Below are positions 6,027 through 55,527 of a stretch of DNA of 64,000 nt, piece by piece. Numbering within the stretch: position 1 is the stretch's first letter; the number at the start of each line of letters is the position of its first letter. This DNA comes from Sediminibacterium sp. (GTDB lineage Bacteria; Bacteroidota; Bacteroidia; Chitinophagales; Chitinophagaceae). A model generated the notes under the pieces. It saw only the letters and a program-made list of their open reading frames with translations, ran no database searches and had not been told where the DNA came from. The stretch lies in contig JBILDC010000012.1 of the NCBI GenBank assembly GCA_044352855.1, positions 4,892 through 68,891 on the forward strand, in the 5' to 3' direction. The position numbers and the translations under genes are program-made.

Positions 6027-6836
6027 ATGAAAAAACTCTTTACCATACTATTTCTTCTTTCTGCATTTATTTCAAATGCGCAGCGTACTATGTTTGGTGG
6101 GCAGAATAATTATGTTGCACCGGTGGTTGTTGCTCCACCCGCTTTAGTAACGGCTGGCCTAGTCTTGAATTTAGATGCAGGCAATGCTTCAAGTTATAAT
6201 GGCACTGGAACTACTTGGTTGGATTTATCTGACAAACGAAACAATGGTACTCTAGTAAATACAATTACACATAATACTGCTAATCCTGGTTATTTGATAT
6301 TTAATGCGAATGGGAATGGTATTGCACAAGGAGGAATGAATCCCTATGTGAGTTTGCCTCAATCAACTGATTTTGATTTTGGAACGGGAGATTTTACTTT
6401 AGAAATGTGGGCCTACACAACAACTGCAAATGCTCATCCCGATTTTATTACTATTAATGCAAATGCATCCACGTACGCAGCAATACGAATAGAATATTGG
6501 AATAACAACTTAATTGTTTTCCATTCCTATGATGGCAATAGTCATGTAACTGGAGCTAGTGTTCCATTTACTTTGAATTCATGGCAGCAAATTGTGGTAT
6601 CCAGAATATCTGGGTCAGTTAAACTATATCTAAATAGCGATATAAAATCGACTTATTCATTACCGGGTTCTTTATTAGCGCAACAAGAAACACGTATAGG
6701 TGATTTAAGAGGTTCACTAGGCTATTATAGCTTTTCAGGAAATATCTCTATTGTTAAGATGTTTAAAAATAAGGGGTTGACTGATACGGAGGTGACAAAT
6801 CATTTTAATCTTACCAAATCACGTTTCGGTTTATAA
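6027..6836 (+). CDS. Exported LamG/ConA-like lectin domain protein (paralog of 5229-6017)
   Basis: Same N-terminus QRTMFGGQNNY; LVLNLDAGNASSYNGTGTTWLDLS, DFTLEMW, WQQIVVSR, LTDTEVTNHFNLTKSRFGL. Confidence 0.8.
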   Translation: MKKLFTILFLLSAFISNAQRTMFGGQNNYVAPVVVAPPALVTAGLVLNLDAGNASSYNGTGTTWLDLSDKRNNGTLVNTITHNTANPGYLIFNANGNGIAQGGMNPYVSLPQSTDFDFGTGDFTLEMWAYTTTANAHPDFITINANASTYAAIRIEYWNNNLIVFHSYDGNSHVTGASVPFTLNSWQQIVVSRISGSVKLYLNSDIKSTYSLPGSLLAQQETRIGDLRGSLGYYSFSGNISIVKMFKNKGLTDTEVTNHFNLTKSRFGL

Positions 6837-6853
6837 ACTGTAAAAATATTTTT

Positions 6854-7669
6854 ATGAAAAAATACATCACACCTATTATTATAATATTCTCTCTTGCTGC
6901 CTGCATTCCTCCGGGAAAGCTTAATGAGTCATTAGATGCTAATACTTTACTTACTAAAAAGTACGATACATTAAATAATAAATTAAATGATACTGTGGCT
7001 AGTTTTAGTGCAAGCCTAAGTAATTTAAAAAGCAGTATTAATAATTTAAAAGATAGTGTAAGCTATTACCGTGGTTTAGTATCAACCACTCCTGCACAAA
7101 CGCAGGGAGATATTTTTTTAAATCAAATGCTTGGCTATTCTTTATTAAGTAAGTCGGAATTGGCTAACATTAAAGCCGCTAATACATCAAATAATGCAAA
7201 CAATGCTTGGCTAGAAAGCTTCAAAGCCGACGTAAAGAAATATGCAGTAGCTGATGTCGATATTAAATTAAATAAAGGTTTTGTATTTGTAGATATTCCA
7301 TCTAATATCATGTTTGCTAGTGGAAGTGCTTCACTCAATAAAAAATCAATTCAAATGTTAGGCGAAATTGCAAAATTATTAAATACACAACCTTCAATGA
7401 ATTTTTTAATTGAAGGCCATACCGATAATAAAACCTTTAAAGCTAATAAGACGAATGATAACTGGACGCTTAGTGTAAACCGAGCAGCAGCAGTAGCAAA
7501 AGTTTTACAAACTAAATACAAGATTGATCCAAAAAGAATGATTGCTGCAGGAAGAAGTGAGTATTTGCCTATGGGTGACAATAATACAAAAGCGGGTCGT
7601 TCAAACAACCGTCGTATACGTATTGTGTTAATGCCTTCGATGAAACAAATAATGAATTTGAATAATTAA
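6854..7669 (+). CDS. OmpA/MotB-family lipoprotein with peptidoglycan-binding domain
   Basis: Lipobox LAAC; coiled-coil N-part; MFASGSA, IEGHTDN, NWTLSVNRA, GRSEYLP, NRRIRIV motifs. Confidence 0.9.
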   Translation: MKKYITPIIIIFSLAACIPPGKLNESLDANTLLTKKYDTLNNKLNDTVASFSASLSNLKSSINNLKDSVSYYRGLVSTTPAQTQGDIFLNQMLGYSLLSKSELANIKAANTSNNANNAWLESFKADVKKYAVADVDIKLNKGFVFVDIPSNIMFASGSASLNKKSIQMLGEIAKLLNTQPSMNFLIEGHTDNKTFKANKTNDNWTLSVNRAAAVAKVLQTKYKIDPKRMIAAGRSEYLPMGDNNTKAGRSNNRRIRIVLMPSMKQIMNLNN

Positions 7670-7681
7670 TAAATTATAAAA

Positions 7682-7891
7682 ATGGAAATTACAATGAGTA
7701 TTGATCCCATAAAATTATCTAGCAGAGAAACTGAAGTTTGTAATTTATTATTAACTGGTAGCAGTACAAATAAAATTGCAGAGTTATTAAATATAAAGTG
7801 CAATACTGTATCTACTATAAAGAAATCTATTTTTTATAAAACAAAGACTAATAACTTAATTGAATTGTATGAGGTGTATAAACAAGTTTAG
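7682..7891 (+). CDS. Stand-alone LuxR-type HTH protein (69 aa)
   Basis: LSSRETEVCNLLLTGSSTNKIAELLNIKCNTVSTIKKSIFYK matches the LuxR HTH pattern. Confidence 0.8.
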   Translation: MEITMSIDPIKLSSRETEVCNLLLTGSSTNKIAELLNIKCNTVSTIKKSIFYKTKTNNLIELYEVYKQV

Positions 7892-10642: not shown

Positions 10643-13165
10643 ATGAAATATTTAATCATTTTATTTACAGTGATTGCATTTTTTAATTTAAATGCAAATG
10701 CGCAAGTTAAGTTAGGATCCTATGCTGTAAGAAACAGCCCAGGAGATTTATATCCAACCCATTTAGATAGCTTGGGACAAGGTGGTTTTATGAGTTTACA
10801 AACTATAGCAAATAGAAATGCCATTTTGAGTAGACAAAGAAAAGTGGGGATGATGGTGTATGTGCAAGCTAATGATTCATTGTACAAATTAGCTACAGCA
10901 GATTTAAGTAATAATGGTTGGGTAGCTATGGGATTATTAACCCAACAAAAATTAAGCGACTCTTTGAATACAAGGCTAAAAGGAACAGACACTTTAAGCT
11001 TATCAAGTAGAATAGACTCAAAGGCAAATGTGGGTAATATTACGGATGTTAATAATGAGTTGGTTCTAAAATTAAACATCATTGATACTGCTTTTTTATT
11101 GCAAAAAGCAGATACGGCTTTTTTATTACAAAAAAAAGATACGGCTAGTTTATCAAATAGAATAGATTTAAAAGCCAATACAACCACACTTAATAATATA
11201 AATACGGCTATTAGCAATAAACTTATTGCAGATACTGCCTATTTATTGCAAAAGGCAGATACGGCTTTTTTATTGCAGAAAAAAGATACGGCTTTTTTAT
11301 TACAGAAAAACGATACGGCTAATTTATCCAATAGAATAGATTTAAAAGCTAATACAACGACACTTAATAATATAAATACTGCTATAAACAATAAACTTAT
11401 TGCAGACACTACCTATTTATTGCAGAAAAAAGATACGGCTAGTTTATCTAATAGAATCAATTTAAAAGCCAATACAATAGATGTAAATAATTTATATACA
11501 TCTATAAGCAATAAACTTATTACAGATACAACCTATTTATTACAAAAAAAAGATACAGCTAGTTTATCCAATAGAATTAATCTAAAACTAGATGCAAATA
11601 AATCTGGAGTAGCGAACGGGGTTGCAAGTCTAAATGCATTAGGTAAAATACCTACAGATCAAATACCTGCTATTTCATTTTCTTCGGTAAGAATAGTAAA
11701 TACTGAAGCTGAAATGTTAGGATTGAATTCGGCAGTGGTAGGAAGTGTTGCAGTTAGAACCGATGTGAATAAAAGTTTTATATTGGCTGTAAGTGATCCT
11801 ACTATTTTGACCAATTGGACCATGCTTTTAACGCCAGCCCCGCCAGTACAATCAGTGAATGGATATAGCGGAAATGTTTCCTTAACCAAAGCCGATATTG
11901 GTTTAGGTAATGTAGATAATTACAGTTCGGAAGATTTGCCAGTTTCACTTGCTTCAAGAAATGAATTAGCATTAAAATTAAAAATCACAGACACTTCTTA
12001 TTTATTTAAAAAAACAGACACTTCTTTTCTTTTACAAAAAAAGGATACTACAATTTTATCGAATAGAATTAATTTAAAATTGACTACCACAGATACCTCC
12101 TTCTTATTAAAGAAAACAGACACTTCATATTTATTAAAGAAAACAGACAGTTCTTTTCTTTTACAAAAAAAGGATACTACAAGTTTATCCAATAGGATTA
12201 ATAAAAAATTAAATATAACTGACACTTCGTTCTTATTAAAGAAGACAGATACTTCCTTCTTATTAAAGAAAACTGATACATCATTTTTATTAAAGAAATC
12301 AGATACCACCTATTTATTACAAAAAGTAGATACTACAGCTATATTGTCGATGTATGCAAAAAAATTCACCAAAGATGTGGTCGTTAATTTTGGTGGTGGT
12401 AGTTTTGGTAAATATGCAAATGGGGAAACCGTACCTGCAAAAGGAAAAACTTTAGATGAATTTTTGTACGATGTACTAACTAAATCAGTTCCTCCAAACT
12501 ATGTTGCACCTAGAGTTTCAATAGGTGCTAGTCCAGCATTTGGTGCTTATGAAATTGGGTACAATCCTGGATTGGTTTCCTTATCCAATAGTTATACAAA
12601 AAATGATGGTGGTAATGTGACTTTGACTATATATAATAAAGGTGGAGCCTCTTTGGGAACTGGCGTGAATACCAATACACCAGGTACAATAACAAGTACT
12701 GTTAGTTATAATGTTACAGTTAATTATGGTGCTGGAAATGTGAAAACCGACAATTTAGGCAATCCATATCCTACTGGTCAAATCACTGCTGGATCTACTT
12801 CTTCTGCTTCAGGTGCCTATACGACTTATTCAAAAAGATATTATGGTGGCACAAGTGTCGCATTCACTGAGTCAAATACTTATAATTATGCTTCATTAAG
12901 TCAAGCACTAGGTTCAGATCCAGATGGACATATTAATTCTAAGACTGTAAGTCTTACGCCAACAGGTACCCAAAATGTATTTTTTGCTTATCCCGCAGGT
13001 TTATCTGATCTCAGTTCTATTTTATACAATGGGAATGAATCTATTGATTCATTTACTAAATCAATAATATTAATAACAAATGCGCAAGGTTATACACAAT
13101 CCTATAAAGTGTATGTGTCTAAAGAAGTGTATAGCTCAACGTTAAATAATCTTAACATTAAATAA
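10643..13165 (+). CDS. 840-aa exported fibre protein (N-domain Y, DTAFLLQK repeats, C-terminal domain X)
   Basis: Sec signal; LYPTHLDSLGQGGFMSL...RQRKVGMMVYVQANDSLYKL; two blocks of DTxxLLxK repeats; C-domain homologous to that of 8430-10634. Confidence 0.75.
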   Translation: MKYLIILFTVIAFFNLNANAQVKLGSYAVRNSPGDLYPTHLDSLGQGGFMSLQTIANRNAILSRQRKVGMMVYVQANDSLYKLATADLSNNGWVAMGLLTQQKLSDSLNTRLKGTDTLSLSSRIDSKANVGNITDVNNELVLKLNIIDTAFLLQKADTAFLLQKKDTASLSNRIDLKANTTTLNNINTAISNKLIADTAYLLQKADTAFLLQKKDTAFLLQKNDTANLSNRIDLKANTTTLNNINTAINNKLIADTTYLLQKKDTASLSNRINLKANTIDVNNLYTSISNKLITDTTYLLQKKDTASLSNRINLKLDANKSGVANGVASLNALGKIPTDQIPAISFSSVRIVNTEAEMLGLNSAVVGSVAVRTDVNKSFILAVSDPTILTNWTMLLTPAPPVQSVNGYSGNVSLTKADIGLGNVDNYSSEDLPVSLASRNELALKLKITDTSYLFKKTDTSFLLQKKDTTILSNRINLKLTTTDTSFLLKKTDTSYLLKKTDSSFLLQKKDTTSLSNRINKKLNITDTSFLLKKTDTSFLLKKTDTSFLLKKSDTTYLLQKVDTTAILSMYAKKFTKDVVVNFGGGSFGKYANGETVPAKGKTLDEFLYDVLTKSVPPNYVAPRVSIGASPAFGAYEIGYNPGLVSLSNSYTKNDGGNVTLTIYNKGGASLGTGVNTNTPGTITSTVSYNVTVNYGAGNVKTDNLGNPYPTGQITAGSTSSASGAYTTYSKRYYGGTSVAFTESNTYNYASLSQALGSDPDGHINSKTVSLTPTGTQNVFFAYPAGLSDLSSILYNGNESIDSFTKSIILITNAQGYTQSYKVYVSKEVYSSTLNNLNIK
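11080..12330 (+). repeat. Coding DT(A/T/S)(F/Y)LL(Q/K)K and DTASLSNRI repeats, in two blocks
   Basis: Visible in DNA (gatacggcttttttattacagaaaaa; gacacttcxttxttattaaagaa) and in the protein. Confidence 0.85.
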
Positions 13166-20179: not shown

Positions 20180-20399
20180 TTTTTTTGAGGGTTAGCATAA
20201 TGTCGCAACTTAGAAAATTTTATAATTATATTTTAATAAAATAATATATTATTAAAATAGTTTAATATTTTTCATTTCGAAGAAAATATTAAAACAGTTT
20301 AACTACAAGCTATTTTTAATAATTGTATTTTTATTTTAATAATTTTAATCACAGGGAAGCCGAAAACTGTATTATAGAGTAGGCGCAAATTTTAATTAT

Positions 20400-47834: not shown

Positions 47835-47908
47835 TCCTCCTTAGCTCAGTTGGTTAGAGCACATCACTGTTAATGATGGGGTCCTCCGTTCAAGTCGGAG
47901 AGGGGGAG
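47835..47908 (+). tRNA. tRNA-Asn(GTT)
   Basis: TCCTCCT/AGGGGGA acceptor stem, CATCA-CTGTTAA-TGATG anticodon arm, CTCCG-TTCAAGT-CGGAG T-arm. Confidence 0.97.
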
Positions 47909-47980
47909 CAAGAGTGCACAAGGCGACAGAAATGTCGCCTTTTTTGTTGTCCGTCAATGAGTTAGGCTAGCTGCATCTTT
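47903..47980 (+). repeat. Junction J0: tRNA 3' end + terminator + tgtccgtcaatgagttagg + tagctgcatc
   Basis: 47903-47966 is identical (64 nt) to 49275-49338. Confidence 0.9.
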
Positions 47981-47988
47981 GTAAAAAA

Positions 47989-48351
47989 TCAAGCAAATTC
48001 TTTTATAATCTTCTTTGCAGTATGGGTTTTACCCCAATTGGCAAGTTCGTGTAATAAAGGAAGTAGTGATTTCCCTGCATTTGTTAAAGAGTATTCAACT
48101 CTTGGTGGCATTTCGGTGAATTCAATTCGATGAACCAATCCAAATTGTTCTAATTCTTTCAGTTCCCCAGCCAATACTTTGTTCGAGATTGAAGGAATGA
48201 TTTGATTGAGTTTACCAAATCGAATGGTTCTGTCTCCGATACAGTTCAATATAATTGGTTTCCATTTACCGCCAATGATACTCATTGTTCGGGTTACAGG
48301 ACAATTTAATGGGTTATCGATGAATTTATTACTCATATTTCTGGTTACCAT
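47989..48351 (-). CDS. HxlR-family winged-helix transcriptional regulator
   Basis: CPVTRTMSIIGGKWK, RFGKL, LKELE, PPRVEYSLT. Confidence 0.93.
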   Translation of the reverse strand: MVTRNMSNKFIDNPLNCPVTRTMSIIGGKWKPIILNCIGDRTIRFGKLNQIIPSISNKVLAGELKELEQFGLVHRIEFTEMPPRVEYSLTNAGKSLLPLLHELANWGKTHTAKKIIKEFA

Positions 48352-48422
48352 TTGGTTACTTGTATTTACTAAATCAGTTACAAATGTAAACCATTGAATC
48401 TATTTTTGTAAAAAAATAAATT

Positions 48423-49184
48423 ATGAAAAGGTATATACAAATTGTCGGTGTAGTTTTAATTCAATTAGTTGTTGTTTCTTCAACTCTTGCTCAAACGAAA
48501 TTAAAGTTGGGAAAACAGGAGTTTGAATTACATAATGTAACAGGCTCTATCATTAAGTTCCAAGGTGAAAATGTCCTGAAAATAGAAAGAGATTTGCAGT
48601 CATTACCATTTGATGTGAATAGACTAGAAGCAACAGTTGACGAAAAGCATTATGCAAAATTGGTAGGATTAGATGATTTTGAAAATGGGACGATTGAGAT
48701 TAAGATGTATAGTCAAATCCAAGACCCATCTCCATTTGCAGGAGCTGCTGGTTTTATTGGTTTATATTATCGAATAGCACCAAATGATTCTGCATTTGAA
48801 TCCATCTATTTGCGACCTAAAGTGGGAAGAGCATCTAATCAAATGTTTAGAAACCATGCTGTTCAATATTTTTCATATCCTCATGCAAAGTTCGAAACTT
48901 TGAGAAAGAATTATCCTCCGGGTTCTTATGAAGGGTCTGCTCCTGTTGCACTTAAAGAGTGGATCACCATGAGAATTGAAGTGAATGGTGAAACTGCTGA
49001 AATGTTCATTAACAATATGAAATACTCTTCTTTTATCGTTGATAAAATGTTGGGGAATGTTAAAAAAGGAGGAGTTGGACTTTATGTTGATATTGCGACC
49101 ATTGGATATTTTAAGGACTTGAAAGTAATTAAAAGAGCATACAAAGCTCCAGCGAAGAAAGAGGATAATCAGGATGGAATTTAA
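48423..49184 (+). CDS. Exported hypothetical protein (ConA-like/DUF1080-like)
   Basis: Signal peptide; FENGTIEI, FESIYLRP, WITMRIEVNG, GGVGLYV. Confidence 0.6.
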   Translation: MKRYIQIVGVVLIQLVVVSSTLAQTKLKLGKQEFELHNVTGSIIKFQGENVLKIERDLQSLPFDVNRLEATVDEKHYAKLVGLDDFENGTIEIKMYSQIQDPSPFAGAAGFIGLYYRIAPNDSAFESIYLRPKVGRASNQMFRNHAVQYFSYPHAKFETLRKNYPPGSYEGSAPVALKEWITMRIEVNGETAEMFINNMKYSSFIVDKMLGNVKKGGVGLYVDIATIGYFKDLKVIKRAYKAPAKKEDNQDGI

Positions 49185-49214
49185 CTTCTTGTAATCTTGC
49201 CGGAAGTTAAGTGT

Positions 49215-49350
49215 TTAAATTCCATATAGTTACGTAAAAAATAAGAGGTTGATAGCTGCATCTTTTGTCGAAAAGGGGAGCAAGAGTGCACAAGGCGACA
49301 GAAATGTCGCCTTTTTTGTTGTCCGTCAATGAGTTAGGTTAGTTGCATCT
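49215..49350 (+). repeat. Junction J1: degenerate A element + GGGGAGCA + terminator + B element
   Basis: tagctgcatcttttgtcgaaaaggggagcaagagtgcacaaggcgacagaaatgtcgcctttttt...gagttaggttagttgcatc. Confidence 0.9.
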
Positions 49351-49403
49351 ATTTGTTTTTCTTTGATTAACTTCAGTACTTAAATAATCAAACTTATATA
49401 AAA

Positions 49404-49886
49404 ATGAAAAGAATTGCCCTACTATCGCTTTTACTTCTACCATTTCTTGGTTTTGCACAAAACACCCAATATACGGTTACCTCTTTTTTACCTGATGGGC
49501 CATTGGCTCCTAATACACATTATATTGGGGAGGCTTGGTTAAGTAGTGTACTTCAGGGGGATACTGAATTGAATTATAATATTACCAAAGCAACATTTAG
49601 AAAAAATTCCACGCTCGATTGGCACAAACACTCCACACCTCAAGTACTTATTATTTTGGAAGGAGAAGGCTATTATCAAGAAAAGGGTAAAGAACCAATT
49701 ATCATTAAAAAGGGTGACGTTGTTAGATGTCCAAAAGATATAGAGCATTGGCATACAGCAAGTAAAGAAAGTTTAGTTACTTATCTAGCTTTATATGATG
49801 GTTCAAAACCAACTATTTGGACAGATAAACTAACTCAAGCGTATTATGATGATGTCGCTCAGAAACTGAAGGGAGATAAAAAGTAA
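49404..49886 (+). CDS. Cupin-domain protein with signal peptide
   Basis: WHKHSTPQVLIILEGEG, GDVVRCPKDIEHWH. Confidence 0.9.
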   Translation: MKRIALLSLLLLPFLGFAQNTQYTVTSFLPDGPLAPNTHYIGEAWLSSVLQGDTELNYNITKATFRKNSTLDWHKHSTPQVLIILEGEGYYQEKGKEPIIIKKGDVVRCPKDIEHWHTASKESLVTYLALYDGSKPTIWTDKLTQAYYDDVAQKLKGDKK

Positions 49887-49891
49887 AGATA

Positions 49892-50035
49892 TTCAACCTT
49901 TCAATTTCCCGATAGTAACATACTCAATCATCGAATTATAGTTGCATCTTTCGTCGAAAAGGGGAGCAAAACTGGACAAGCCATCAGAAATGATGGCTTT
50001 TTCTTTGTCCATCAATGAGTTAGGGTAGTTGCATT
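49892..50035 (+). repeat. Junction J2: A element + GGGGAGCA (49961-49968) + terminator + B element
   Basis: ttcaatttcccgatagtaacatactcaatcatcgaattatagttgcatctttcgtcgaaaaggggagca; aagccatcagaaatgatggcttttt; tgtccatcaatgagttaggg. Confidence 0.9.
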
Positions 50036-50133
50036 TTTTTTATTTATAGAGGTTTATATTTTTTGAAAAGCTACAACTCAATATCTTTGTTTTTATAGTG
50101 GGATTTCCAATAAATCAACTCATCTCCCTAAAT

Positions 50134-50661
50134 ATGACAAACTATTTAATTGTACCTGGTCTGGGGAATTCTGGTCCAGAACATTGGCAAACTTATTTCC
50201 AAAACTCCGATCCCAATTTTTTTCGAATCGAACAGGCCGATTGGGATACGCCCATTTGTGAAGATTGGATTAAGAATATAGATGCAATGGTAACATCATA
50301 TGACCTATCATCTGTTGTTTTAATTGGACATAGTTTAGGATGTTCAACCATTGCGCATTGGTCAGCTAAGTTTAAAAGAAATATTAAAGGGGCAATGCTA
50401 GTAGCACCTAGTGACCTTGAAGCACCAAATTACACTTTCCCGACAAAAGGATTTTCACCGATACCACTTGATAAATTAAATTTCAATTCTATTGTTATAG
50501 CAAGCTCAAATGATATTTGGGTTTCTTTGGAGAGAGCAAAATTTTTTGCAGAAAATTGGGGCAGTGAATTTATAAACATTGGCGATGCCGGTCATATAAA
50601 TGCATCTTCCGGACACACTAATTGGGAAGAAGGATTAACGATATTGAAAAAACTGGGATAG
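50134..50661 (+). CDS. RBBP9/YdeN-family alpha/beta hydrolase
   Basis: VPGLGNSGPEHWQ, GHSLGC, GDAGHIN; ATG at 50134. Confidence 0.9.
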   Translation: MTNYLIVPGLGNSGPEHWQTYFQNSDPNFFRIEQADWDTPICEDWIKNIDAMVTSYDLSSVVLIGHSLGCSTIAHWSAKFKRNIKGAMLVAPSDLEAPNYTFPTKGFSPIPLDKLNFNSIVIASSNDIWVSLERAKFFAENWGSEFINIGDAGHINASSGHTNWEEGLTILKKLG

Positions 50662-50785
50662 TTTACCCCTTTAATTTCCTGATAGATACCTACTCAATCA
50701 TAGCATTATAGTTGCATCTTTCGTTGGAAAGGGGAGCAGATATAAAATATAAAAGGGTTATACTTTAATTGTATGATCCTTTTTT
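50662..50785 (+). repeat. Junction J3: A element + GGGGAGCA (50731-50738) + terminator hairpin (50751-50785)
   Basis: aatttcctgatagatacctactcaatcatagcattatagttgcatctttcgttggaaaggggagca. Confidence 0.9.
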
Positions 50786-50788
50786 AAT

Positions 50789-51505
50789 TCATACTCTTTT
50801 GAGAATTGAAAATGGCATTATTCTTAATAAGAGGGCAATTAACCTCCACCTCTTAGTGATATAAACCACCTTCTTTTTTTGTTTGATGGCTTGAAGTATT
50901 TGTTCAGCAGCCTTTTGAACAGGGGCTACCCAAAAGAGACCTTCACCCTTCGCCATTGCGGTGTCAACAAATCCTGGTCGAACATCTGTAATGTAGACAG
51001 GTAAATTAGATTTATGGGCATTCAACCTTAACCCTTCCAAATAATTGATTTGATATGCCTTTGTCGCATTGTATGATGGGGCAATACCATTTCCCCTGAT
51101 TCCTGCAATAGAGCTAATGTTGACGAGATGACCATAACCTTGTTCTTTAAAATACCGTACAGCCCAATCAGCAATGCACGTAAATCCTTGAATATTCGTT
51201 TTGATTACACTATGCTCAACATCAAAATTTAAGTTTTTATTCTCCTCGCCGATTCCTGCTGAAATAATCAATAAATCCAATCCACCCATCTGACTCACCA
51301 ATTCATTACAGATTGCCTCTAAAGTTGATAAATCCTGAACATCCATTTTTTTAAAGACAATTCTATTTATCTCTTGCGTCTGTATGGATTGGAATAATCC
51401 ATCACGTCTGCCAGTTACTCCAACTACAAAACCATGTCGCAAAAGTAACTCAGCCAATGATTTGCCGATTCCACTTGTTGCTCCTATGATGATAGCTTTT
51501 TTCAT
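50789..51505 (-). CDS. Short-chain dehydrogenase/reductase (SDR)
   Basis: GATSGIG, NISS, YNATK; start MKKAII at 51505. Confidence 0.93.
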   Translation of the reverse strand: MKKAIIIGATSGIGKSLAELLLRHGFVVGVTGRRDGLFQSIQTQEINRIVFKKMDVQDLSTLEAICNELVSQMGGLDLLIISAGIGEENKNLNFDVEHSVIKTNIQGFTCIADWAVRYFKEQGYGHLVNISSIAGIRGNGIAPSYNATKAYQINYLEGLRLNAHKSNLPVYITDVRPGFVDTAMAKGEGLFWVAPVQKAAEQILQAIKQKKKVVYITKRWRLIALLLRIMPFSILKRV

Positions 51506-51563
51506 TTTTATAAAAGTAGATAAACTAAGTATGAATGCCAACTTCCTGCAAATTGACACGAAG

Positions 51564-51675
51564 TTTAACCCTTCAATTTCCTAATAGTCACATACTCAAT
51601 CATCGCATTATAGTTGCATCTTTCGTCTGTAAGGGGAGCACTCAAGAAAAGCCATCAGCAATGATGGCTTTTTTG
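51564..51675 (+). repeat. Junction J4: A element + GGGGAGCA (51633-51640) + terminator
   Basis: ttcaatttcctaatagtcacatactcaatcatcgcattatagttgcatctttcgtctgtaaggggagca; aaaagccatcagcaatgatggctttttt. Confidence 0.9.
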
Positions 51676-51694
51676 CTAAATAAAGAGATCCTGT

Positions 51695-53299
51695 TTATGG
51701 CTGACTTAAGAATGCTTTGGAATAATTAATCTTCAAAGCATCCATCGAAGGCATGTGTCCTTTCAAACGCTTTTTGAAATCCTCATAATTTTTTGATCCT
51801 TTGGGAGACCAAGAAACTTCTGATAAAGCCAAAGCTCTTGGATAGGTCATATACTCCGCATAAGGTAAATTACTGACATATTCGGTCCATAAGTTGGCCT
51901 GAATGCCCACCACATGTTTCGCTTCCTCAGCCGTCAATTCAGGTAAATCTGGTTCAAAAGAATAGCATTTGCTTAAAGGTAAAAATCCACCGATGGCGAT
52001 GGGTTCTGTTTTAGCCTCCGCTTGGTAATAATCGATGTAGAAATAGGAGTTAGGCGACATCACAACATCGTGATTTTGTTTCGCAGCTTCGATACCACCT
52101 TTAGTTCCCCTCCAAGACATGACCATCGCATTTGGCGATAAACCACCTTCTAAAATTTCGTCCCAACCTAATAATTTTTTTCCTTTGGACGTAATAAATT
52201 TATCAATCCGACGAATGAAATAACTTTGTAATTCATTTTCATCCTTCAGGCCTAATTTTTTAATTAAGTCTTGGCAAAAACGACTTTCCTTCCATTGAGT
52301 TTTGGGACATTCATCCCCTCCAATGTGGATGTATTGGCCTGGAAATAATGCCATCACTTCGGTTAGCACATCTTCTAAAAAAGTAAAAGTTTCTTCACGT
52401 GGAAATAAGACGTCTTCAGCCACGCCCCATTTTGTTTTTACTTGTAATATTTTATCCCCATTAGCACCAAATTGTGGATAGGCTGCCAATACAGCCGTCG
52501 AATGACCTGGCATTTCAATTTCAGGAATTACCTGAATATATTTAGAAGTGGCGTAAGCAACTACTTCCTTAATTTGCTCTTGTGTATAAAATCCGCCATG
52601 TGGCTTTCCGTCGTATTTTTGGTCCTGGTAATGGCCCAACATACTTTCCTTTCGCACCGAAGATATAGAGGTCAACAAAGGATATTTTTTTATTTCAATA
52701 CGCCAGCCCTGATCTTCAGTCAAATGCCAATGAAACGTATTTAATTTATAAATAGCCATCAAATCGATGTAGCGTTTTACCGCATCCACTGAGAAAAAAT
52801 AACGGCCTACGTCTAGCATTAAACCGCGGTAGCTAAAACGTGGAGCATCTTCGATCAAACAATTAGGAACTGTTAAAGCAACCGTCGACAACTCATTTCC
52901 GTAAATAGGCGCAGGCATCAATTGGAGCAAAGTTTGTAAACCATAAAAAGCACCTTTTCCAGTTTTTGCTTGAATTTCTACTTTTTTAGACGTCACTTGT
53001 AAACGATATTCCTCATCTCCTAAAGCATCATTTTTGCTAAATACTATTCCTGAAGTGGCGGACTTAGCGATTTTAACAGGAACTGTTTGACCCGACGCAT
53101 TTTTAATTTGCAAGGCTAGTAAATTAGCCGATGGACTAAATTCATCTGAATTTATGTACACTGAAATTCCTTTCTTGATCGTAAAAGTACCCTCAGCAGG
53201 TTTTAAAGATTTAGGCAAAGGGATAATGTTGTATGCATTTTGGGCTAAAGAACTCCAAGCTATACACAAGCATAAAATAATGAATTGGATTTTTTTCAT
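51695..53299 (-). CDS. GH20 beta-N-acetylhexosaminidase
   Basis: DAPRFSYRGLMLDVGR, HWHLTEDQGWR, EIEMPGH, HIGGDE, YPRALAL. Confidence 0.96.
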   Translation of the reverse strand: MKKIQFIILCLCIAWSSLAQNAYNIIPLPKSLKPAEGTFTIKKGISVYINSDEFSPSANLLALQIKNASGQTVPVKIAKSATSGIVFSKNDALGDEEYRLQVTSKKVEIQAKTGKGAFYGLQTLLQLMPAPIYGNELSTVALTVPNCLIEDAPRFSYRGLMLDVGRYFFSVDAVKRYIDLMAIYKLNTFHWHLTEDQGWRIEIKKYPLLTSISSVRKESMLGHYQDQKYDGKPHGGFYTQEQIKEVVAYATSKYIQVIPEIEMPGHSTAVLAAYPQFGANGDKILQVKTKWGVAEDVLFPREETFTFLEDVLTEVMALFPGQYIHIGGDECPKTQWKESRFCQDLIKKLGLKDENELQSYFIRRIDKFITSKGKKLLGWDEILEGGLSPNAMVMSWRGTKGGIEAAKQNHDVVMSPNSYFYIDYYQAEAKTEPIAIGGFLPLSKCYSFEPDLPELTAEEAKHVVGIQANLWTEYVSNLPYAEYMTYPRALALSEVSWSPKGSKNYEDFKKRLKGHMPSMDALKINYSKAFLSQP

Positions 53300-53569
53300 A
53301 GTTCTATTGGATTGAATCGTAAAGATATTGGATCGAATTTAAAATCACTGTAATAAATAATTATAAATTTTAAAAGAAAAGCACAGAGGTCGCAACCTTT
53401 AAATTGTAATAATTCAATGTAATTTTTTAGCAGGTATTTTATGCGGTATTGATAAAGCAATCCATATTCATTAAAGTCCTAATTACAAGGTATGGTTTTG
53501 TACAAAATGGTATTTTCGTTTGTATTCGACTGGAGTTAGGCCCTGATTCTTTTAAAATTTCCCACAAAG

Positions 53570-53600
53570 GGCTTTTTCTTTGTCCGTCAGTGACTTAGGG
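53570..53600 (+). repeat. Junction J5: isolated B element
   Basis: ggctttttctttgtccgtcagtgacttaggg matches 49995-50025 at 28 of 31 positions. Confidence 0.75.
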
Positions 53601-53726
53601 CTTTCTTGTTCGCGTATAAATACGCTGTTTTCTTTTCATTTTCCTTCAGATATTTATTTTCAATAAAGTAGTTAAAATATTTTATTAAAGTTCCATTTTA
53701 AGTTAACTTTGTAAACGAGGAATTCA

Positions 53727-53951
53727 ATGAATCAAGTAAGAGAGCTGGTTTTTTATAGAAATCATTTTCATGACTTTTTTGATAAGCAATCAGAGAAAGC
53801 TAAAGAAAAAATTGATTAAGTTTTATTCTTACTAACTCATATCGATAAAGTTCCAGAGAAGTTTTTAAAACATATAGAAGGACAAAAAGGATTGTATGAA
53901 ATAAGAGTTGAACATGGCAGCAATATTTTAGTACGACTAAATAAACAAGTA
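53727..53951 (+). pseudogene. Disrupted RelE/HigB (gp49-like) toxin
   Basis: MNQVRELVFYRNHFHDFF...KID* (TAA 53817-53819), then VLFLL...KFLKHIEGQKGLYEIRV...GSNI. The C-terminal third is missing and the frame runs into the antitoxin. Confidence 0.8.
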
Positions 53952-54254
53952 ATGGCAAAGAAAGAAAATAAGAGTACAAATTTTAATGAGCATTTAACTC
54001 GACGTTATGGTATAAAAGGTTCAGAGAGGAGAACTGAGTTTGAAATAAAGGCTAAAGCCTATCTTATAGGAGAGTTAATAAAAGAAGAAAGAAAAAATGC
54101 AAAAATGACTCAGGAGCAATTAGCGGATAAGATTGGCGCCAAAAAAAGTTTTATCTCTAGAATTGAAAATGGTAAAACAGATATTCAACTTTCTACTTTA
54201 TACAGGCTGCTTGAATTTGGACTAGGAAAAAATGTTGAGGTTTCTGTTAATTAA
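53952..54254 (+). CDS. HigA-like XRE HTH antitoxin
   Basis: ATG 53952; MTQEQLADKIGAKKSFISRIENG...DIQLSTL. Confidence 0.85.
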   Translation: MAKKENKSTNFNEHLTRRYGIKGSERRTEFEIKAKAYLIGELIKEERKNAKMTQEQLADKIGAKKSFISRIENGKTDIQLSTLYRLLEFGLGKNVEVSVN

Positions 54255-54305
54255 TTTCAATTCTTTTCCTTTCTAAAAAGGAATTAATTTTGCTCTAAAT
54301 CAAAC

Positions 54306-54557
54306 ATGCTCAAAATGAACGCACCTTTCAGCAAGTATCTTTATATTGGTTTTTTACTATTAGGCTCATACCAAGCCATTTTCTCTAAAGACTATGTTCA
54401 AGCAGCAGCTTCAATGGGTATAGGATTGGCATTTGATCCATTCAATCCAGACCAAAAATGGAATGACCGACCTACATGGCAAAAGGCAGTTTTAATTATT
54501 CACCTAGCCTTAGTCGCAGCAATGTTCGGATTGGGCGTTGGCTTGAATGATAAGTAA
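54306..54557 (+). CDS. Small hypothetical membrane protein
   Basis: TM segments; GIGLAFDPFNPDQKWNDRP. Confidence 0.6.
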   Translation: MLKMNAPFSKYLYIGFLLLGSYQAIFSKDYVQAAASMGIGLAFDPFNPDQKWNDRPTWQKAVLIIHLALVAAMFGLGVGLNDK

Positions 54558-54581
54558 ACCTGCTTCAATATATATTTCATC

Positions 54582-55229
54582 ATGAAGATTAAAGTAAAAA
54601 TTTGTTGCATTAGTAGTATTGAAGAGGCTTCACTAGCAATTGTGCACGGCGCCGCAGCTATTGGCTTGGTGGGAAGAATGCCCAGTGGCCCTGGCATTAT
54701 CACAGATGACCTTATTCATAGTATAGCTAAAACCGTACTTCCTCCCATTGATAGTTTTTTATTAACCAGTGAAACAACAGCTGAAGCAATTATTGAACAC
54801 CACAATAAAGTCAATACAACTACTATTCAAATGGTTGATGCCTTAAGTGGCCGTGAATATCATAAAATAAGAGAAGCCATACCTCATGTTAAACTGGTTC
54901 AAGTAATTCATGTGTTGGATGAAAAGGCTGTTCAAGAAGCTATTGAAATAGCAGAATGGGTAGATGCTATTTTACTAGACAGTGGTAATCCTAATTTGTC
55001 TACCAAGGTATTGGGAGGAACAGGCAAAACACATAACTGGGATTTAAGTAAAAAAATTAGAGAAAACATTAGTATTCCTACCTATTTAGCTGGAGGCATT
55101 AATAAAGACAATATTAGAAAGGCCATTGATCATGTGCAACCATATGGCATTGACTTATGCAGTAGTGTAAGAACCAATGGACAATTAGATGAGCGTAAAT
55201 TAGAAGAATTATTTAAAGCCTTGCAATAG
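54582..55229 (+). CDS. Phosphoribosylanthranilate isomerase-like (TrpF-like) TIM barrel
   Basis: VKICCISS, AILLDSG, GGTG, LAGGI, DLCSSV; not within a trp operon. Confidence 0.8.
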   Translation: MKIKVKICCISSIEEASLAIVHGAAAIGLVGRMPSGPGIITDDLIHSIAKTVLPPIDSFLLTSETTAEAIIEHHNKVNTTTIQMVDALSGREYHKIREAIPHVKLVQVIHVLDEKAVQEAIEIAEWVDAILLDSGNPNLSTKVLGGTGKTHNWDLSKKIRENISIPTYLAGGINKDNIRKAIDHVQPYGIDLCSSVRTNGQLDERKLEELFKALQ

Positions 55230-55284
55230 GTTTTTTATAATGCTAGTTTCATCATAATATCGGTTTGCTTTTCATTACCTAATT

Positions 55285-55334
55285 CATTAATCTCCTAATA
55301 GTTACATACTCAATCATCTTATTGTAGCTGCATC
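55285..55334 (+). repeat. Junction J6: degenerate A element lacking the tRNA core
   Basis: tctcctaatagttacatactcaatcatcttattgtagctgcatc aligns to J2-J4. Confidence 0.75.
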
Positions 55335-55527
55335 CATAAAGTAATTTTAGGAGGGTAAAACCATAGCTTAGACCGAACCTGCGAATTCAAATACAGGAAC
55401 TGGTGTGGGCGGGGTTAAAAATTAAAATTGCCTCAGATGCAAAAACTTTATAACTTGTATAGACTAAATTGGATAGATTAATAAATTCATGGCATCTTAT
55501 AATTAATTTTTAACACAAAACTTATTT

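Follow-up and report, generated by a model that had tools for sequence, protein, structure and literature searches.

A tRNA-Asn gene of Sediminibacterium with a probable tandem array of small non-autonomous integrative cassettes at its 3′ end

How did a run of short gene units with little in common come to lie directly downstream of a tRNA-Asn gene in a Sediminibacterium contig, in the stretch of 64,000 nucleotides analyzed here (the window)? In the reading that we consider probable, small non-autonomous integrative cassettes have accreted in tandem at the tRNA-Asn 3′ end via site-specific recombination at GGGGAGC, and their arms are the ends of an element encoding a large serine recombinase (LSR). 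The tRNA-Asn (GTT) gene, identified with ARAGORN and Rfam, occupies positions 47835-47909 of the forward strand and ends at the final C of GGGGAGC (47903-47909), the core, which recurs at 49275-49281, 49961-49967, 50731-50737, and 51633-51639. Core-to-core spacing gives units of 1372, 686, 770, and 902 bp, each beginning with a terminator hairpin and finishing with a conserved element, A, that runs into GGGGAGC. A preliminary description of the region had proposed repeat-separated units in constant orientation whose A element ends like the tRNA, and this holds: the array consists of discrete cassettes whose boundaries are the tRNA 3′-end core, all set one way round directly 3′ of the tRNA-Asn, and the 7 nt are common to the tRNA and four A copies. 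It had also placed a terminator hairpin, often followed by a second motif (B), after each core; the terminator stands and B is present in only some units, but the hairpin is variable between units, and in those with B a further sequence follows (TAGTTGCATCTTT).

Tandem accretion predicts junctions of the form P-core-P′, as seen here. Each cassette would comprise a left P′ arm opening with the terminator hairpin, one to three cargo genes, and a right P arm consisting of A ending in the core, and the P′ hairpin would also terminate the tRNA or the preceding cassette. Cassette 1 (1372 bp, 47910-49281, forward strand, as are all the cassettes) has a P′ arm of terminator (47920-47947), B (47948-47966), and a 13-mer (47968-47980), two cargo genes encoding an HxlR regulator (47989-48351, reverse strand) and a secreted 253-aa protein with weak likeness to 3-keto-disaccharide hydrolases (48423-49184), and a short A (49197-49281), degenerate in its left part and intact over its ∼30 last nt, ending in GGGGAGC. 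Cassette 2 (686 bp, 49282-49967; terminator 49292-49319, B at 49320, 13-mer at 49340) carries a cupin gene (49404-49886) and an A with core (49885-49967), and cassette 3 (770 bp, 49968-50737; terminator 49978-50005, B at 50006, 13-mer at 50026) carries a YdeN-type serine hydrolase gene (Ser_hydrolase, 50134-50661) and an A with core (50656-50737). Cassette 4 (902 bp, 50738-51639) has as its P′ arm an A/T-rich bidirectional hairpin without B (about 50750-50786), followed by an SDR gene (50789-51505, reverse strand) and an A with core (51550-51639).

Cassette 5 (51640-53569) retains a terminator (51647-51676) and a GH20 beta-hexosaminidase gene (51695-53299, reverse strand) and has lost its own A and core. 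It is followed by the remnant of a P′ arm (53570-53600, forward strand), comprising half a terminator and B (53581) without core or 13-mer. Decayed distal units (53601-55338, forward strand) contain a toxin-antitoxin remnant (a broken toxin fragment and an HTH_3 antitoxin, about 53728-54254), a gene for an 83-aa membrane protein (54306-54557) that recurs in 12 or more further loci, a PRAI/TrpF-like gene (54582-55229), and, at the end, an A copy (55280-55338) that stops after TAGCTGCATC and has no GGGGAGC. A spacer (55339-55415) reaches the distal edge of the variable region, and homology with a close relative (locus L043) restarts at 55416. The gene calls of the preliminary description proved correct.

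Element A is about 93 nt long (GCAAATTTGCACGAAGTTCAACCCTTTAATTTCCTGATAGTCACATACTCAATCATCGCATTATAGTTGCATCTTTCGTCTGTAAGGGGAGC) rather than the ∼77 bp first given, and every copy in the window lies on the forward strand; B has the sequence TGTCCGTCAATGAGTTAGG. The A and B motifs gave four matches each against zero expected from shuffles, with none in the 64-kb window outside the array, and the 13-mer (TAGYTGCATCTTT), which occurs inside A and again just 3′ of B in cassettes 1 to 3 (47968, 49340, 50026), had 7 sites where 0.2 would be expected. Conservation covers the left ∼60 nt of A as well, and the likely recombinase half-site is the ∼30 last nt, GYTGCATCTTT-N9-AAGGGGAGC; we saw no symmetric half-site on the right. 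Counted back from the AG of the core, GTTGCAT in A starts at 24 nt and GTTCAAG in the T-loop of the tRNA at 19 nt. Serine integrases have a known offset between their attP and attB half-sites, which the 5-bp offset seen here may resemble.

An exact-pattern scan for A, with one genome per species, returned more than 119 loci, mostly in metagenome bins labeled as freshwater Bacteroidota (Chitinophagaceae/Sediminibacterium, Aquirufa/Cytophagaceae, Flavobacterium, Sphingobacteriia, Saprospiraceae, and others). Among the matches listed, nhmmer located 222 copies of A in 119 loci, with a maximum of six per 8 kb, and ARAGORN found about 23 tRNA-Asn genes in loci with A, the only other tRNA being a syntenic tRNA-Met. 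In about 20 of 21 clear cases among these matches A lies downstream of tRNA-Asn on the same strand, the exception being L005.

Neither an LSR, a small serine recombinase, nor a tyrosine recombinase was found within the 64-kb window, as the preliminary description had stated for integrases, and no recombinase was present in the 119 listed loci with A; with none in the 64 kb, movement in the window organism would need an enzyme supplied in trans. In related genomes a 7-10 kb element is integrated at the same tRNA-Asn junction, and its ends match the cassette ends. It encodes an LSR of about 520 aa (Resolvase, Recombinase, and weak Zn-ribbon domains), a ParB-N/DNA methylase that neighbors the LSR in every case, and often a small serine recombinase. 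The LSR gene lies on the opposite strand, its 3′ end abutting the core, and overlaps the tRNA-Asn 3′ end in L123, L126, and L138; loci recovered with the LSR as query include eight more with this overlap and two others with partial tRNAs. LSRs of 82-97% identity are present in Aquirufa and Flavobacterium isolates and in bins labeled Sphingobacteriia, Chitinophaga, and Lishizhenia. The whole element of L123 (3232-13773) is delimited by tRNA..GGGGGAGC and a short A-end..GGGGAGC, that of L121 ends in a full A with core, and in Aquirufa rosea the element has the tRNA on one side and three A cassettes on the other. Partial matches of cassette P′ arms to LSR residues about 436-521 suggest that terminator, B, and 13-mer are a remnant of the 3′ end of the LSR gene and that the two cassette arms correspond to both ends of the autonomous element. 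Many cassettes have a P′ arm unrelated to the LSR-type arm, the direct link from LSR to A is seen in few loci (L121, L123, L126), and no A lies within 10 kb of six Flavobacterium-type LSR elements.

The same accretion architecture could instead come from a tyrosine integrase that targets tRNAs and acts in trans, in the manner of tycheposons or CIMEs, and this was the agent first proposed, on the premise that such an enzyme duplicates the tRNA 3′ end. Tandem accretion at tRNAs is classically its work, as tycheposon islands with their partial tRNA repeats show, and the TTGCA motifs repeated in A and the P′ arm might serve as arm-type binding sites. In one related island, L120, an A copy does have a tyrosine integrase about 3 kb upstream, one with an arm-binding domain; however, fragments of a different tRNA flank that element, its homologs in L132-L134 do not adjoin A, and a search of the window and L001-L119 gave neither a box-II tyrosine recombinase motif nor a homolog of this integrase. 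The premise fails because the stretch in common with the tRNA is only 7 nt long and neither the window nor the 119 listed loci yielded a tyrosine recombinase, and the gene that abuts the tRNA-Asn junction encodes a serine recombinase in at least 11 loci. We therefore regard a tyrosine integrase as an unlikely agent.

The positions at which homology begins and ends bear on whether a dedicated recombinase is needed at all. Six copies with the same left flanks and the same A split right after GGGGAGC into three right arms, and the sequences that follow ...GGGAGC in 21 tRNA-Asn 3′ ends (20 from related loci and that of the window) belong to the same terminator families as those following A...GGGGAGC. 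One right-arm cluster, with a AAAAGGGTTATAC-type hairpin, accounts for 36 of 144 exact-pattern copies. Cassette content differs completely in a close relative and recurs in other contexts and taxa; we saw neither a gene order held in common among relatives nor a scatter of A independent of tRNA-Asn. L043 is 94-96% identical on both flanks, yet the cassettes between are entirely different. The two-gene unit of cassette 1 also adjoins the tRNA in L079 and follows a different short A-end in L119, and cupin homologs form the first cassette after tRNA-Asn in L043 and L072. The YdeN cassette (88-90% identity) immediately follows tRNA-Asn in L006 and stands behind a short A-end in L053; across its three contexts the limits of homology are the two cores, and in L006 it is 88% identical against 73% for the adjacent HflX gene. 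SDRs are the commonest cargo protein family among the matches listed (cluster 0, 20 ORFs in 19 loci plus the window), with 85% identity for that of Aquirufa rosea, and L011 shares 51547-53380, the region of the GH20 unit, at 94.8% identity. In lake metagenomes the depth of the cupin, YdeN, and SDR cassettes is about 1.5-4 times that of the flank; two bins with A reach about 20-30 times and others 2-8 times. No circular forms or cassette-precise indels within one population were seen in assembled contigs.

Such exchange might proceed with no dedicated recombinase at present if A were a portable homology block. After DNA uptake, RecA-dependent recombination, with one A copy or the tRNA end pairing with another A, would then let cassettes be gained, lost, and swapped. 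With its 93 nt, near-identical within and between genomes, A offers enough length for homologous exchange. Among copies that share a left flank, some diverge only over the right third of A (L113 vs. L103), which suggests that A itself has been a site of exchange, and in 14 of 144 copies homology ends with TAGTTGCATC, an outcome that recombination or slippage between the two 13-mers would give. This model leaves unexplained why the first unit always starts from the last base of tRNA-Asn, where 7 nt are shared, and it does not account for breakpoints exactly after GGGGAGC, for arms that match the ends of the LSR element integrated there, or for the conservation of A across several orders. Its probability is similarly low.

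That A is a dispersed noncoding element unrelated to gene mobility, be it an sRNA or regulatory module or a MITE/REP repeat, seems very improbable. A precedes a terminator, is covered by metatranscriptome contigs, and has a left edge resembling a Bacteroidetes −7 box; against this, it showed no significant folding as RNA or DNA on either strand (z +0.5 to +1.3) and no match in Rfam, it is near-identical without covariation across several Bacteroidota groups, all its copies in the 64 kb lie in one array tied to tRNA-Asn, and its flanking cargo is unrelated between loci and turns over. A classical integron cassette array without integrase (CALIN) would share the small, mostly single-gene cassettes, the repeated site at each end, and the co-orientation seen in 76 of 87 cargo genes, but is effectively refuted because A shows no fold and hence no attC hairpin, and with no IntI or other tyrosine recombinase found in the window, a tRNA rather than attI at the start, and a terminator opening every cassette, we give it almost no credence.

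Our best reading is that the system resembles SCC/psiSCC and the Dehalococcoides ssrA islands and is not an integron. The earlier view that it is neither an integron nor a normal island overstated its novelty, since arrays at conserved gene 3′ ends that include recombinase-less units are known from these two systems, CIMEs, and tycheposon islands. Staphylococci and enterococci have SCCmec, psiSCC, and composite cassette chromosomes, in which cassettes with resistance cargo are integrated by large serine recombinases at the 3′ end of a conserved gene; short direct repeats separate the cassettes of composite arrays, and ccr-less cassettes can be mobilized in trans. Judged from sequence alone, our array has in common with them a probable large serine recombinase, the conserved-gene 3′ end, the short-repeat composite structure, and recombinase-less units that would be mobilized in trans, but its target is a tRNA rather than rlmH, its cassettes are ten to fifty times smaller, and phylum and recombinase lineage differ.

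The ssrA islands of Dehalococcoides form a tandem series downstream of a gene for a small stable RNA, with a short repeat of the 3′ end of that gene bounding each island, and have an integration module on the reverse strand beside attL that encodes a ∼540-aa CcrB-like serine recombinase (DsiB), a second serine recombinase of ∼200 aa, and a ParB-domain protein; recombinase-less units were interpreted as cis-mobilizable elements (McMurdie et al. 2011, PMC3146451). The LSR elements described here carry the same trio at the same position. The present system differs in targeting tRNA-Asn rather than tmRNA, in a repeat of 7 rather than 20 nt, in single-gene cassettes of 0.7-2 kb rather than islands of roughly 10-30 kb, in the conserved ∼93-nt end, in hosts from several orders of Bacteroidota, and in an LSR with only remote similarity to Ccr/XisF models, far below family cut-offs. 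In Prochlorococcus tycheposons, each new integration at a given tRNA displaces earlier elements outward, leaving islands with degraded elements, partial repeats, and adaptive cargo in abundant aquatic bacteria (Hackl et al., 10.1101/2020.12.28.424599). The likeness lies in tRNA-seeded accretion, decayed elements, adaptive cargo, and aquatic hosts; tycheposons, however, are much larger, mostly carry their own tyrosine recombinase, and leave partial tRNA copies of about 40 nt, whereas our units have no recombinase and 7 nt in common with the tRNA. As in integron arrays and CALINs, small single-gene cassettes, mostly co-oriented and with one end recombination site each, form an exchangeable platform, but here IntI, a folded attC, attI, and a Pc promoter are absent, each cassette is insulated by a terminator, and the likely enzyme is a serine recombinase.

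Under the site-specific accretion that we favor, the LSR would be the enzyme that moves the cassettes, and tandem growth would entail repeated insertion into a site already occupied. Canonical serine integrases recombine only attP with attB; insertion into tRNA-core-P′ (attL) would require relaxed site choice, as in Ccr enzymes. The cassettes of Sediminibacterium and other freshwater Bacteroidota appear to be stripped-down relatives of an LSR-carrying mobile element that uses the same tRNA, and they may still be mobile.

The cassette array begins at tRNA-Asn(GTT) (47835-47909), whose last seven bases, GGGGAGC, form a core that recurs at 49275-81, 49961-67, 50731-37 and 51633-39 as the end of four units of 1372, 686, 770 and 902 bp. 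The same order is found in every unit, comprising a hairpin with a T run, the cargo, the conserved element A and the terminal core. A scan detected hairpins with T runs at the unit starts 47920, 49292 and 49978, and further unit-start hairpins are found at 51647 and, in A/T-rich form, at ~50750. In three units the hairpin is followed by element B (TGTCCGTCAATGAGTTAGG) and then by the 13-mer TAGYTGCATCTTT. All A copies of the window belong to this single 7.5-kb array and have one orientation. Neither A nor B has a copy outside the array within the 64-kb window (shuffles expect 0 matches), and the 13-mer occurs there at 7 sites against 0.2 expected, one inside each A and one behind each B. The array noted at tRNA-Asn in the preliminary description is confirmed, and the cargo genes it assigned agree with the gene calls.

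Distal to 51640 the array decays. The GH20 unit beyond this position has lost its own A, half a terminator and B remain at 53570-53600, and next along are the remains of a toxin-antitoxin pair and genes for a small membrane protein and a TrpF-like protein, with the last A (55280-55338) ending prematurely after TAGCTGCATC. In the toxin-antitoxin remnant (53728-54254), stop codons interrupt the frame upstream of an intact HTH_3 antitoxin-like gene (53892-54254). The gene for the 83-aa predicted membrane protein (54306-54557), which is without Pfam match, is among the most widely shared cargo genes, with copies of 75-90% nucleotide identity in 12 or more further loci. Positions 1-44000 resemble a glycan-utilisation region with three sulfatases, a sulfatase-modifying enzyme, BNR/sialidase-like and GH18 proteins and a TonB-dependent receptor plug.

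An exact-pattern scan for A in one genome per species returned at least 119 loci, most of them from lake and river metagenome bins whose taxonomic labels are unevenly reliable and include Chitinophagaceae/Sediminibacterium, Aquirufa/Cytophagaceae, Flavobacterium, Sphingobacteriia, Saprospiraceae, Cryomorphaceae and Crocinitomicaceae. A profile search identified 222 copies of A among the 119 loci listed (L001-L119), with up to six per 8 kb. A tRNA-Asn gene is present within ~23 of these loci, and A is downstream of it on the same strand in all of the ~21 clear cases except L005, in which A is on the + strand at 960 and tRNA-Asn on the - strand at 7353. The only other tRNA in the listed loci is tRNA-Met, which neighbours tRNA-Asn in the window too. 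Some Aquirufa genomes have oppositely oriented A copies 6-25 kb apart (L014 and L107 are on one Aquirufa contig), which suggests that two arrays converge or that an inversion took place between arrays.

The boundaries of the units are precise. Six A copies that are identical in A and its left flank split directly after GGGGAGC into three unrelated right arms, and 21 tRNA-Asn 3' ends (20 related loci and the window) read ...GGGAGC followed by the same terminator-arm families as found behind A...GGGGAGC; the T-arms of these 21 genes vary between taxa. The YdeN cassette is found in three settings, behind the cupin cassette in the window, directly behind the tRNA in L006 and, in L053, behind an unrelated gene and its short A-end, and in each its homology starts and stops at cores. 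Between the window and L006 this cassette is 88% identical, as compared with 73% for the neighbouring HflX gene. In L043, a long-read bin, both flanks are 94-96% identical to the window and enclose a different cassette set between the same boundaries, namely genes for a cupin homologue (74% identity) and a SnoaL-like protein as well as a small gene in reverse orientation and one for an S9 peptidase. The differences in cassette content between relatives that the preliminary description proposed to look for are thus present, with breaks at cores, and favour accretion cassette by cassette at the end of the tRNA.

The window derives from a lake population, and lake metagenome data, as assembled contigs that are short and break at repeats, indicate how its cassettes are distributed. 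In four lake metagenomes, depth relative to unique flanks was ~20-30x in two A-containing bins and 2-8x in the other A-containing bins. The cupin, YdeN and SDR cassettes were at ~1.5-4x flank depth and the HxlR and GH20 units at flank depth, indicating that other genomes in the same water share single cassettes and not the whole array. Metatranscriptome contigs cover both the cassettes and A, indicating that both are transcribed.

Not every copy of A extends to the core. Homology ends right after TAGYTGCATC (TAGTTGCATC) instead of at GGGGAGC in 14 of 144 copies from L001-L119 as listed (including L001, L025, L028, L031 and L085), and likewise in the last A of the window. Three early-ending copies (L004, L048 and L105) have the alternative continuation TCCTCTGCGTGAGG in common. 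Crossover at the 13-mer may account for the 14 copies, and recombination or slippage between two 13-mers is also a possible cause; as the crossover site in place of the core, however, the 13-mer is at odds with the tRNA-proximal junctions. Short A-ends occur at intact-looking junctions (window cassette 1, L053, L119 and L123), which suggests that ~30 nt may constitute the essential half-site.

We built a consensus of A from 140 copies (~93 nt) and folded it and its reverse complement as DNA and as RNA. The z-scores were +0.5 to +1.3, with 136-186 of 200 shuffles folding equally well or better, and A has no Rfam match, the matches in the window being two tRNAs and a DUF805b RNA motif only (20350-20385, + strand; 38 bits, gathering score 35.6), which is unrelated to the array. 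A is therefore neither a structured RNA nor an attC-like hairpin, both being ruled out by the absence of a fold on either strand. Nor is A recognisable as a decayed copy of tRNA-Asn because, without the core, the two align no better than shuffles (z -0.2 to -1.0). A promoter for reverse-oriented cargo in the left part of A can be dismissed as the left 16 nt are equally conserved whatever the cargo orientation, and a dispersed repeat of MITE/REP type, which would be scattered in many copies and have terminal inverted repeats or a palindrome, is contradicted by the confinement to one array in the 64-kb window, the lack of a fold and the linkage to tRNA-Asn. A has no match in a viral contig collection.

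The window has no match to the serine or tyrosine recombinases of related loci, no tyrosine-recombinase box-II motif and, for its other ORFs, no recombinase among 25 listed of 51 matched Pfam families. A search with a broad motif pattern and tblastn found no tyrosine recombinase motif or homologue in the window or among the listed L001-L119. Three loci have a small serine recombinase, the stop codon of which is inside A in one (L010/L120), and searching with this protein led to elements of 7-10 kb directly 3' of tRNA-Asn in L123, L126 (isolate Aquirufa rosea CAR-16) and L138. Their first gene, on the opposite strand, encodes a large serine recombinase (LSR) of 517-521 aa with Resolvase, Recombinase and weak zinc-ribbon domains, and its frame crosses the terminator hairpin to end inside the oppositely oriented tRNA-Asn gene (L126:4093-4330, also L123 and L138). 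The LSR tail is conserved between loci at the protein level, with compensatory changes in the hairpin, and after excision the frame would continue into A, read as its reverse complement, for ~24 codons. The LSR query recovered 21 loci, in 8 of which tRNA-Asn, as called by ARAGORN, overlaps the LSR gene at its 3' end, with a partial tRNA there in 2 more. A ParB-N/DNA methylase gene always adjoins the LSR gene and the small serine recombinase is often found further along. LSRs from Aquirufa and Flavobacterium isolates and from bins labelled Sphingobacteriia, Chitinophaga and Lishizhenia are 82-97% identical, which points to recent transfer.

The LSR element and the cassettes have the same kinds of ends. 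At its far end the element terminates in A with core in the case of L121 and, in L123, in a short A-end (TATAGTTGCATCTTTCGTCTGTAAGGGGAGC), and in Aquirufa rosea (L126/L199) the tRNA is followed by the LSR element and then by three A cassettes, so that units with and without a recombinase occur with the same ends in one array, a pattern also seen in L121 and L123. Several cassette left arms have partial translated matches to LSR residues ~436-521, and the left arm of the window shares its first ~40 nt with the LSR arm, with compensatory changes in the hairpin, indicating that terminator, B and 13-mer are remnants of the 3' end of the LSR gene. Many other cassettes have left arms unrelated to the LSR type. 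Cassette arms match both ends of the LSR element, and the cargo consists of metabolic or regulatory genes only. In longer left arms the 13-mer is present as an inverted pair (GYTGCAKCTTTTCC, ~22 nt, GAAAAGATGCARC; L126:4236-4284 and 10745-10793, also L082, L123 and L138), making a 49-bp dyad with the half-site length of the A-end; this could be a second recombinase binding site.

Two other enzymes were considered. The small serine recombinase has ~20 close homologues, with a full A adjacent only at L010/L120 and a truncated A at one more, and an accessory role beside the LSR is more probable for it than that of the cassette enzyme. The tyrosine integrase of L120 (Arm-DNA-bind_5 and Phage_integrase domains) is rejected because its element is bounded by fragments of another tRNA. 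It belongs to a second kind of element in the same island (L120:2400-2620 and 6310-7803), which has on one side two fragments of the 3' half of that tRNA and homologues in L132-L134. In outline the proposal of the preliminary description stands, with non-autonomous cassettes, accretion at a tRNA att junction and no recombinase close by; the tyrosine enzyme class it named is probably wrong, an LSR being the better candidate.

We predict that the autonomous element enters the end of tRNA-Asn through LSR-mediated recombination within GGGGAGC, and that the cassettes are miniature derivatives retaining both ends, which the same enzyme would insert, and perhaps excise, in trans. Newer units would be those closer to the tRNA. 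Since a unit landing directly behind the tRNA gene must bring a terminator, this would explain the invariable left-end hairpin. Counted back from the AG of the core, the motif GTTGCAT in A begins at 24 nt and the similar T-loop motif GTTCAAG of the tRNA at 19 nt. Half-sites of serine integrases show such a 5-bp offset between attP and attB, and by analogy A and the tRNA may differ as attP and attB do. To our knowledge, canonical serine integrases do not use attL, and entry of a further unit at an occupied site (tRNA-core-P') would call for relaxed site choice. Overall, we tentatively propose, as a reading with slightly less than an even chance of being correct, that freshwater Bacteroidota share a cassette platform at tRNA-Asn which is built on a serine recombinase and functions analogously to an integron. 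In this reading, a trans-acting LSR with relaxed site choice would capture single genes, each packaged between a left arm with terminator and an A arm of 93 nt, reshuffle them and pass them across orders of Bacteroidota, the cargo already including subclass B1 metallo-beta-lactamase genes.

The array is integron-like in its small, mostly co-oriented cassettes (76 of 87 cargo genes), yet fails both defining integron tests. The attC sites of integrons and CALINs are imperfect palindromes (R''-L''...L'-R') that fold as single-stranded hairpins, a fold that A lacks, and integron arrays are headed by IntI and attI (absent by definition in CALINs), whereas the head here is tRNA-Asn and no tyrosine recombinase was found in the window or the listed L001-L119. 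Like CIME-type elements, the cassettes have the att sites of an autonomous element and no recombination or transfer genes. SCC-like and ssrA-GI-like elements insert at the 3' end of a conserved gene with short direct repeats bounding the units, as here with GGGGAGC and breaks exactly after it; their LSR gene is beside the attachment site, as in L123, L126, L138 and 8 further loci although not in the window, and their arrays mix units with and without recombinase, as do those of Aquirufa rosea, L121 and L123. In such elements it is the recombinase that excises and integrates DNA at the repeats. SCCmec, psiSCC and composite cassette chromosomes are experimentally studied relatives of this scheme. 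The closest architectural match is the ssrA islands of Dehalococcoides, which stand in tandem behind a stable-RNA gene whose 3' end recurs as a short repeat at their boundaries (McMurdie et al. 2011, PMC3146451). Their module, on the reverse strand beside attL, combines two serine recombinases, one CcrB-like and of ~540 aa and the other of ~200 aa, with a ParB-domain protein, and recombinase-less units have been read as cis-mobilizable elements (McMurdie et al. 2011, PMC3146451). Tycheposon islands accrete by pushing outward at tRNAs, using tyrosine recombinases and long partial tRNA repeats (Hackl et al., 10.1101/2020.12.28.424599). Tycheposons have their own tyrosine (or large serine) recombinase and ~40-nt partial tRNA copies, whereas the present units have no recombinase and a 7-nt core only. 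The impression that the arrangement is unprecedented was thus overstated, since the accretion architecture is known from ssrA islands, SCC and tycheposons. We found no published description of tRNA-Asn cassettes in Bacteroidetes, Aquirufa islands or serine recombinases at tRNA-Asn, which is weak evidence of novelty given incomplete literature coverage. What is new here is that the units are of single-gene scale and have a conserved end of 93 nt, that the target is tRNA-Asn and that the system spans several freshwater Bacteroidota groups.

Cargo in other arrays includes SDRs, DUF3703, ABM and SnoaL genes, regulators and subclass B1 metallo-beta-lactamases. A 251-aa member of the latter reaches 278 bits with NCBIfam NF033088, for which the cut-off is 200, and its nearest family is CHM. 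The metallo-beta-lactamase is a single-gene cassette between two A copies in L001 (3362-4384) and L054 (5532-6557; Aquirufa rosea CAR-16), the hosts of such cassettes being a Flavobacterium bin and this isolate, and is also found as cargo in L039, L041 and L050. The platform therefore bears on natural reservoirs of mobile carbapenemase-type genes. If the proposal is true, a serine recombinase with a tRNA target, possibly relaxed site choice and minimal sites would be added to the known repertoire, and the A arm beside tRNA-Asn would serve as a marker to trace the platform in metagenomes. If the cassettes move as proposed, abundant lake bacteria of several orders would swap single genes via a common, compact and integron-independent platform, which would partially explain strain-level differences in gene content among freshwater Bacteroidota.
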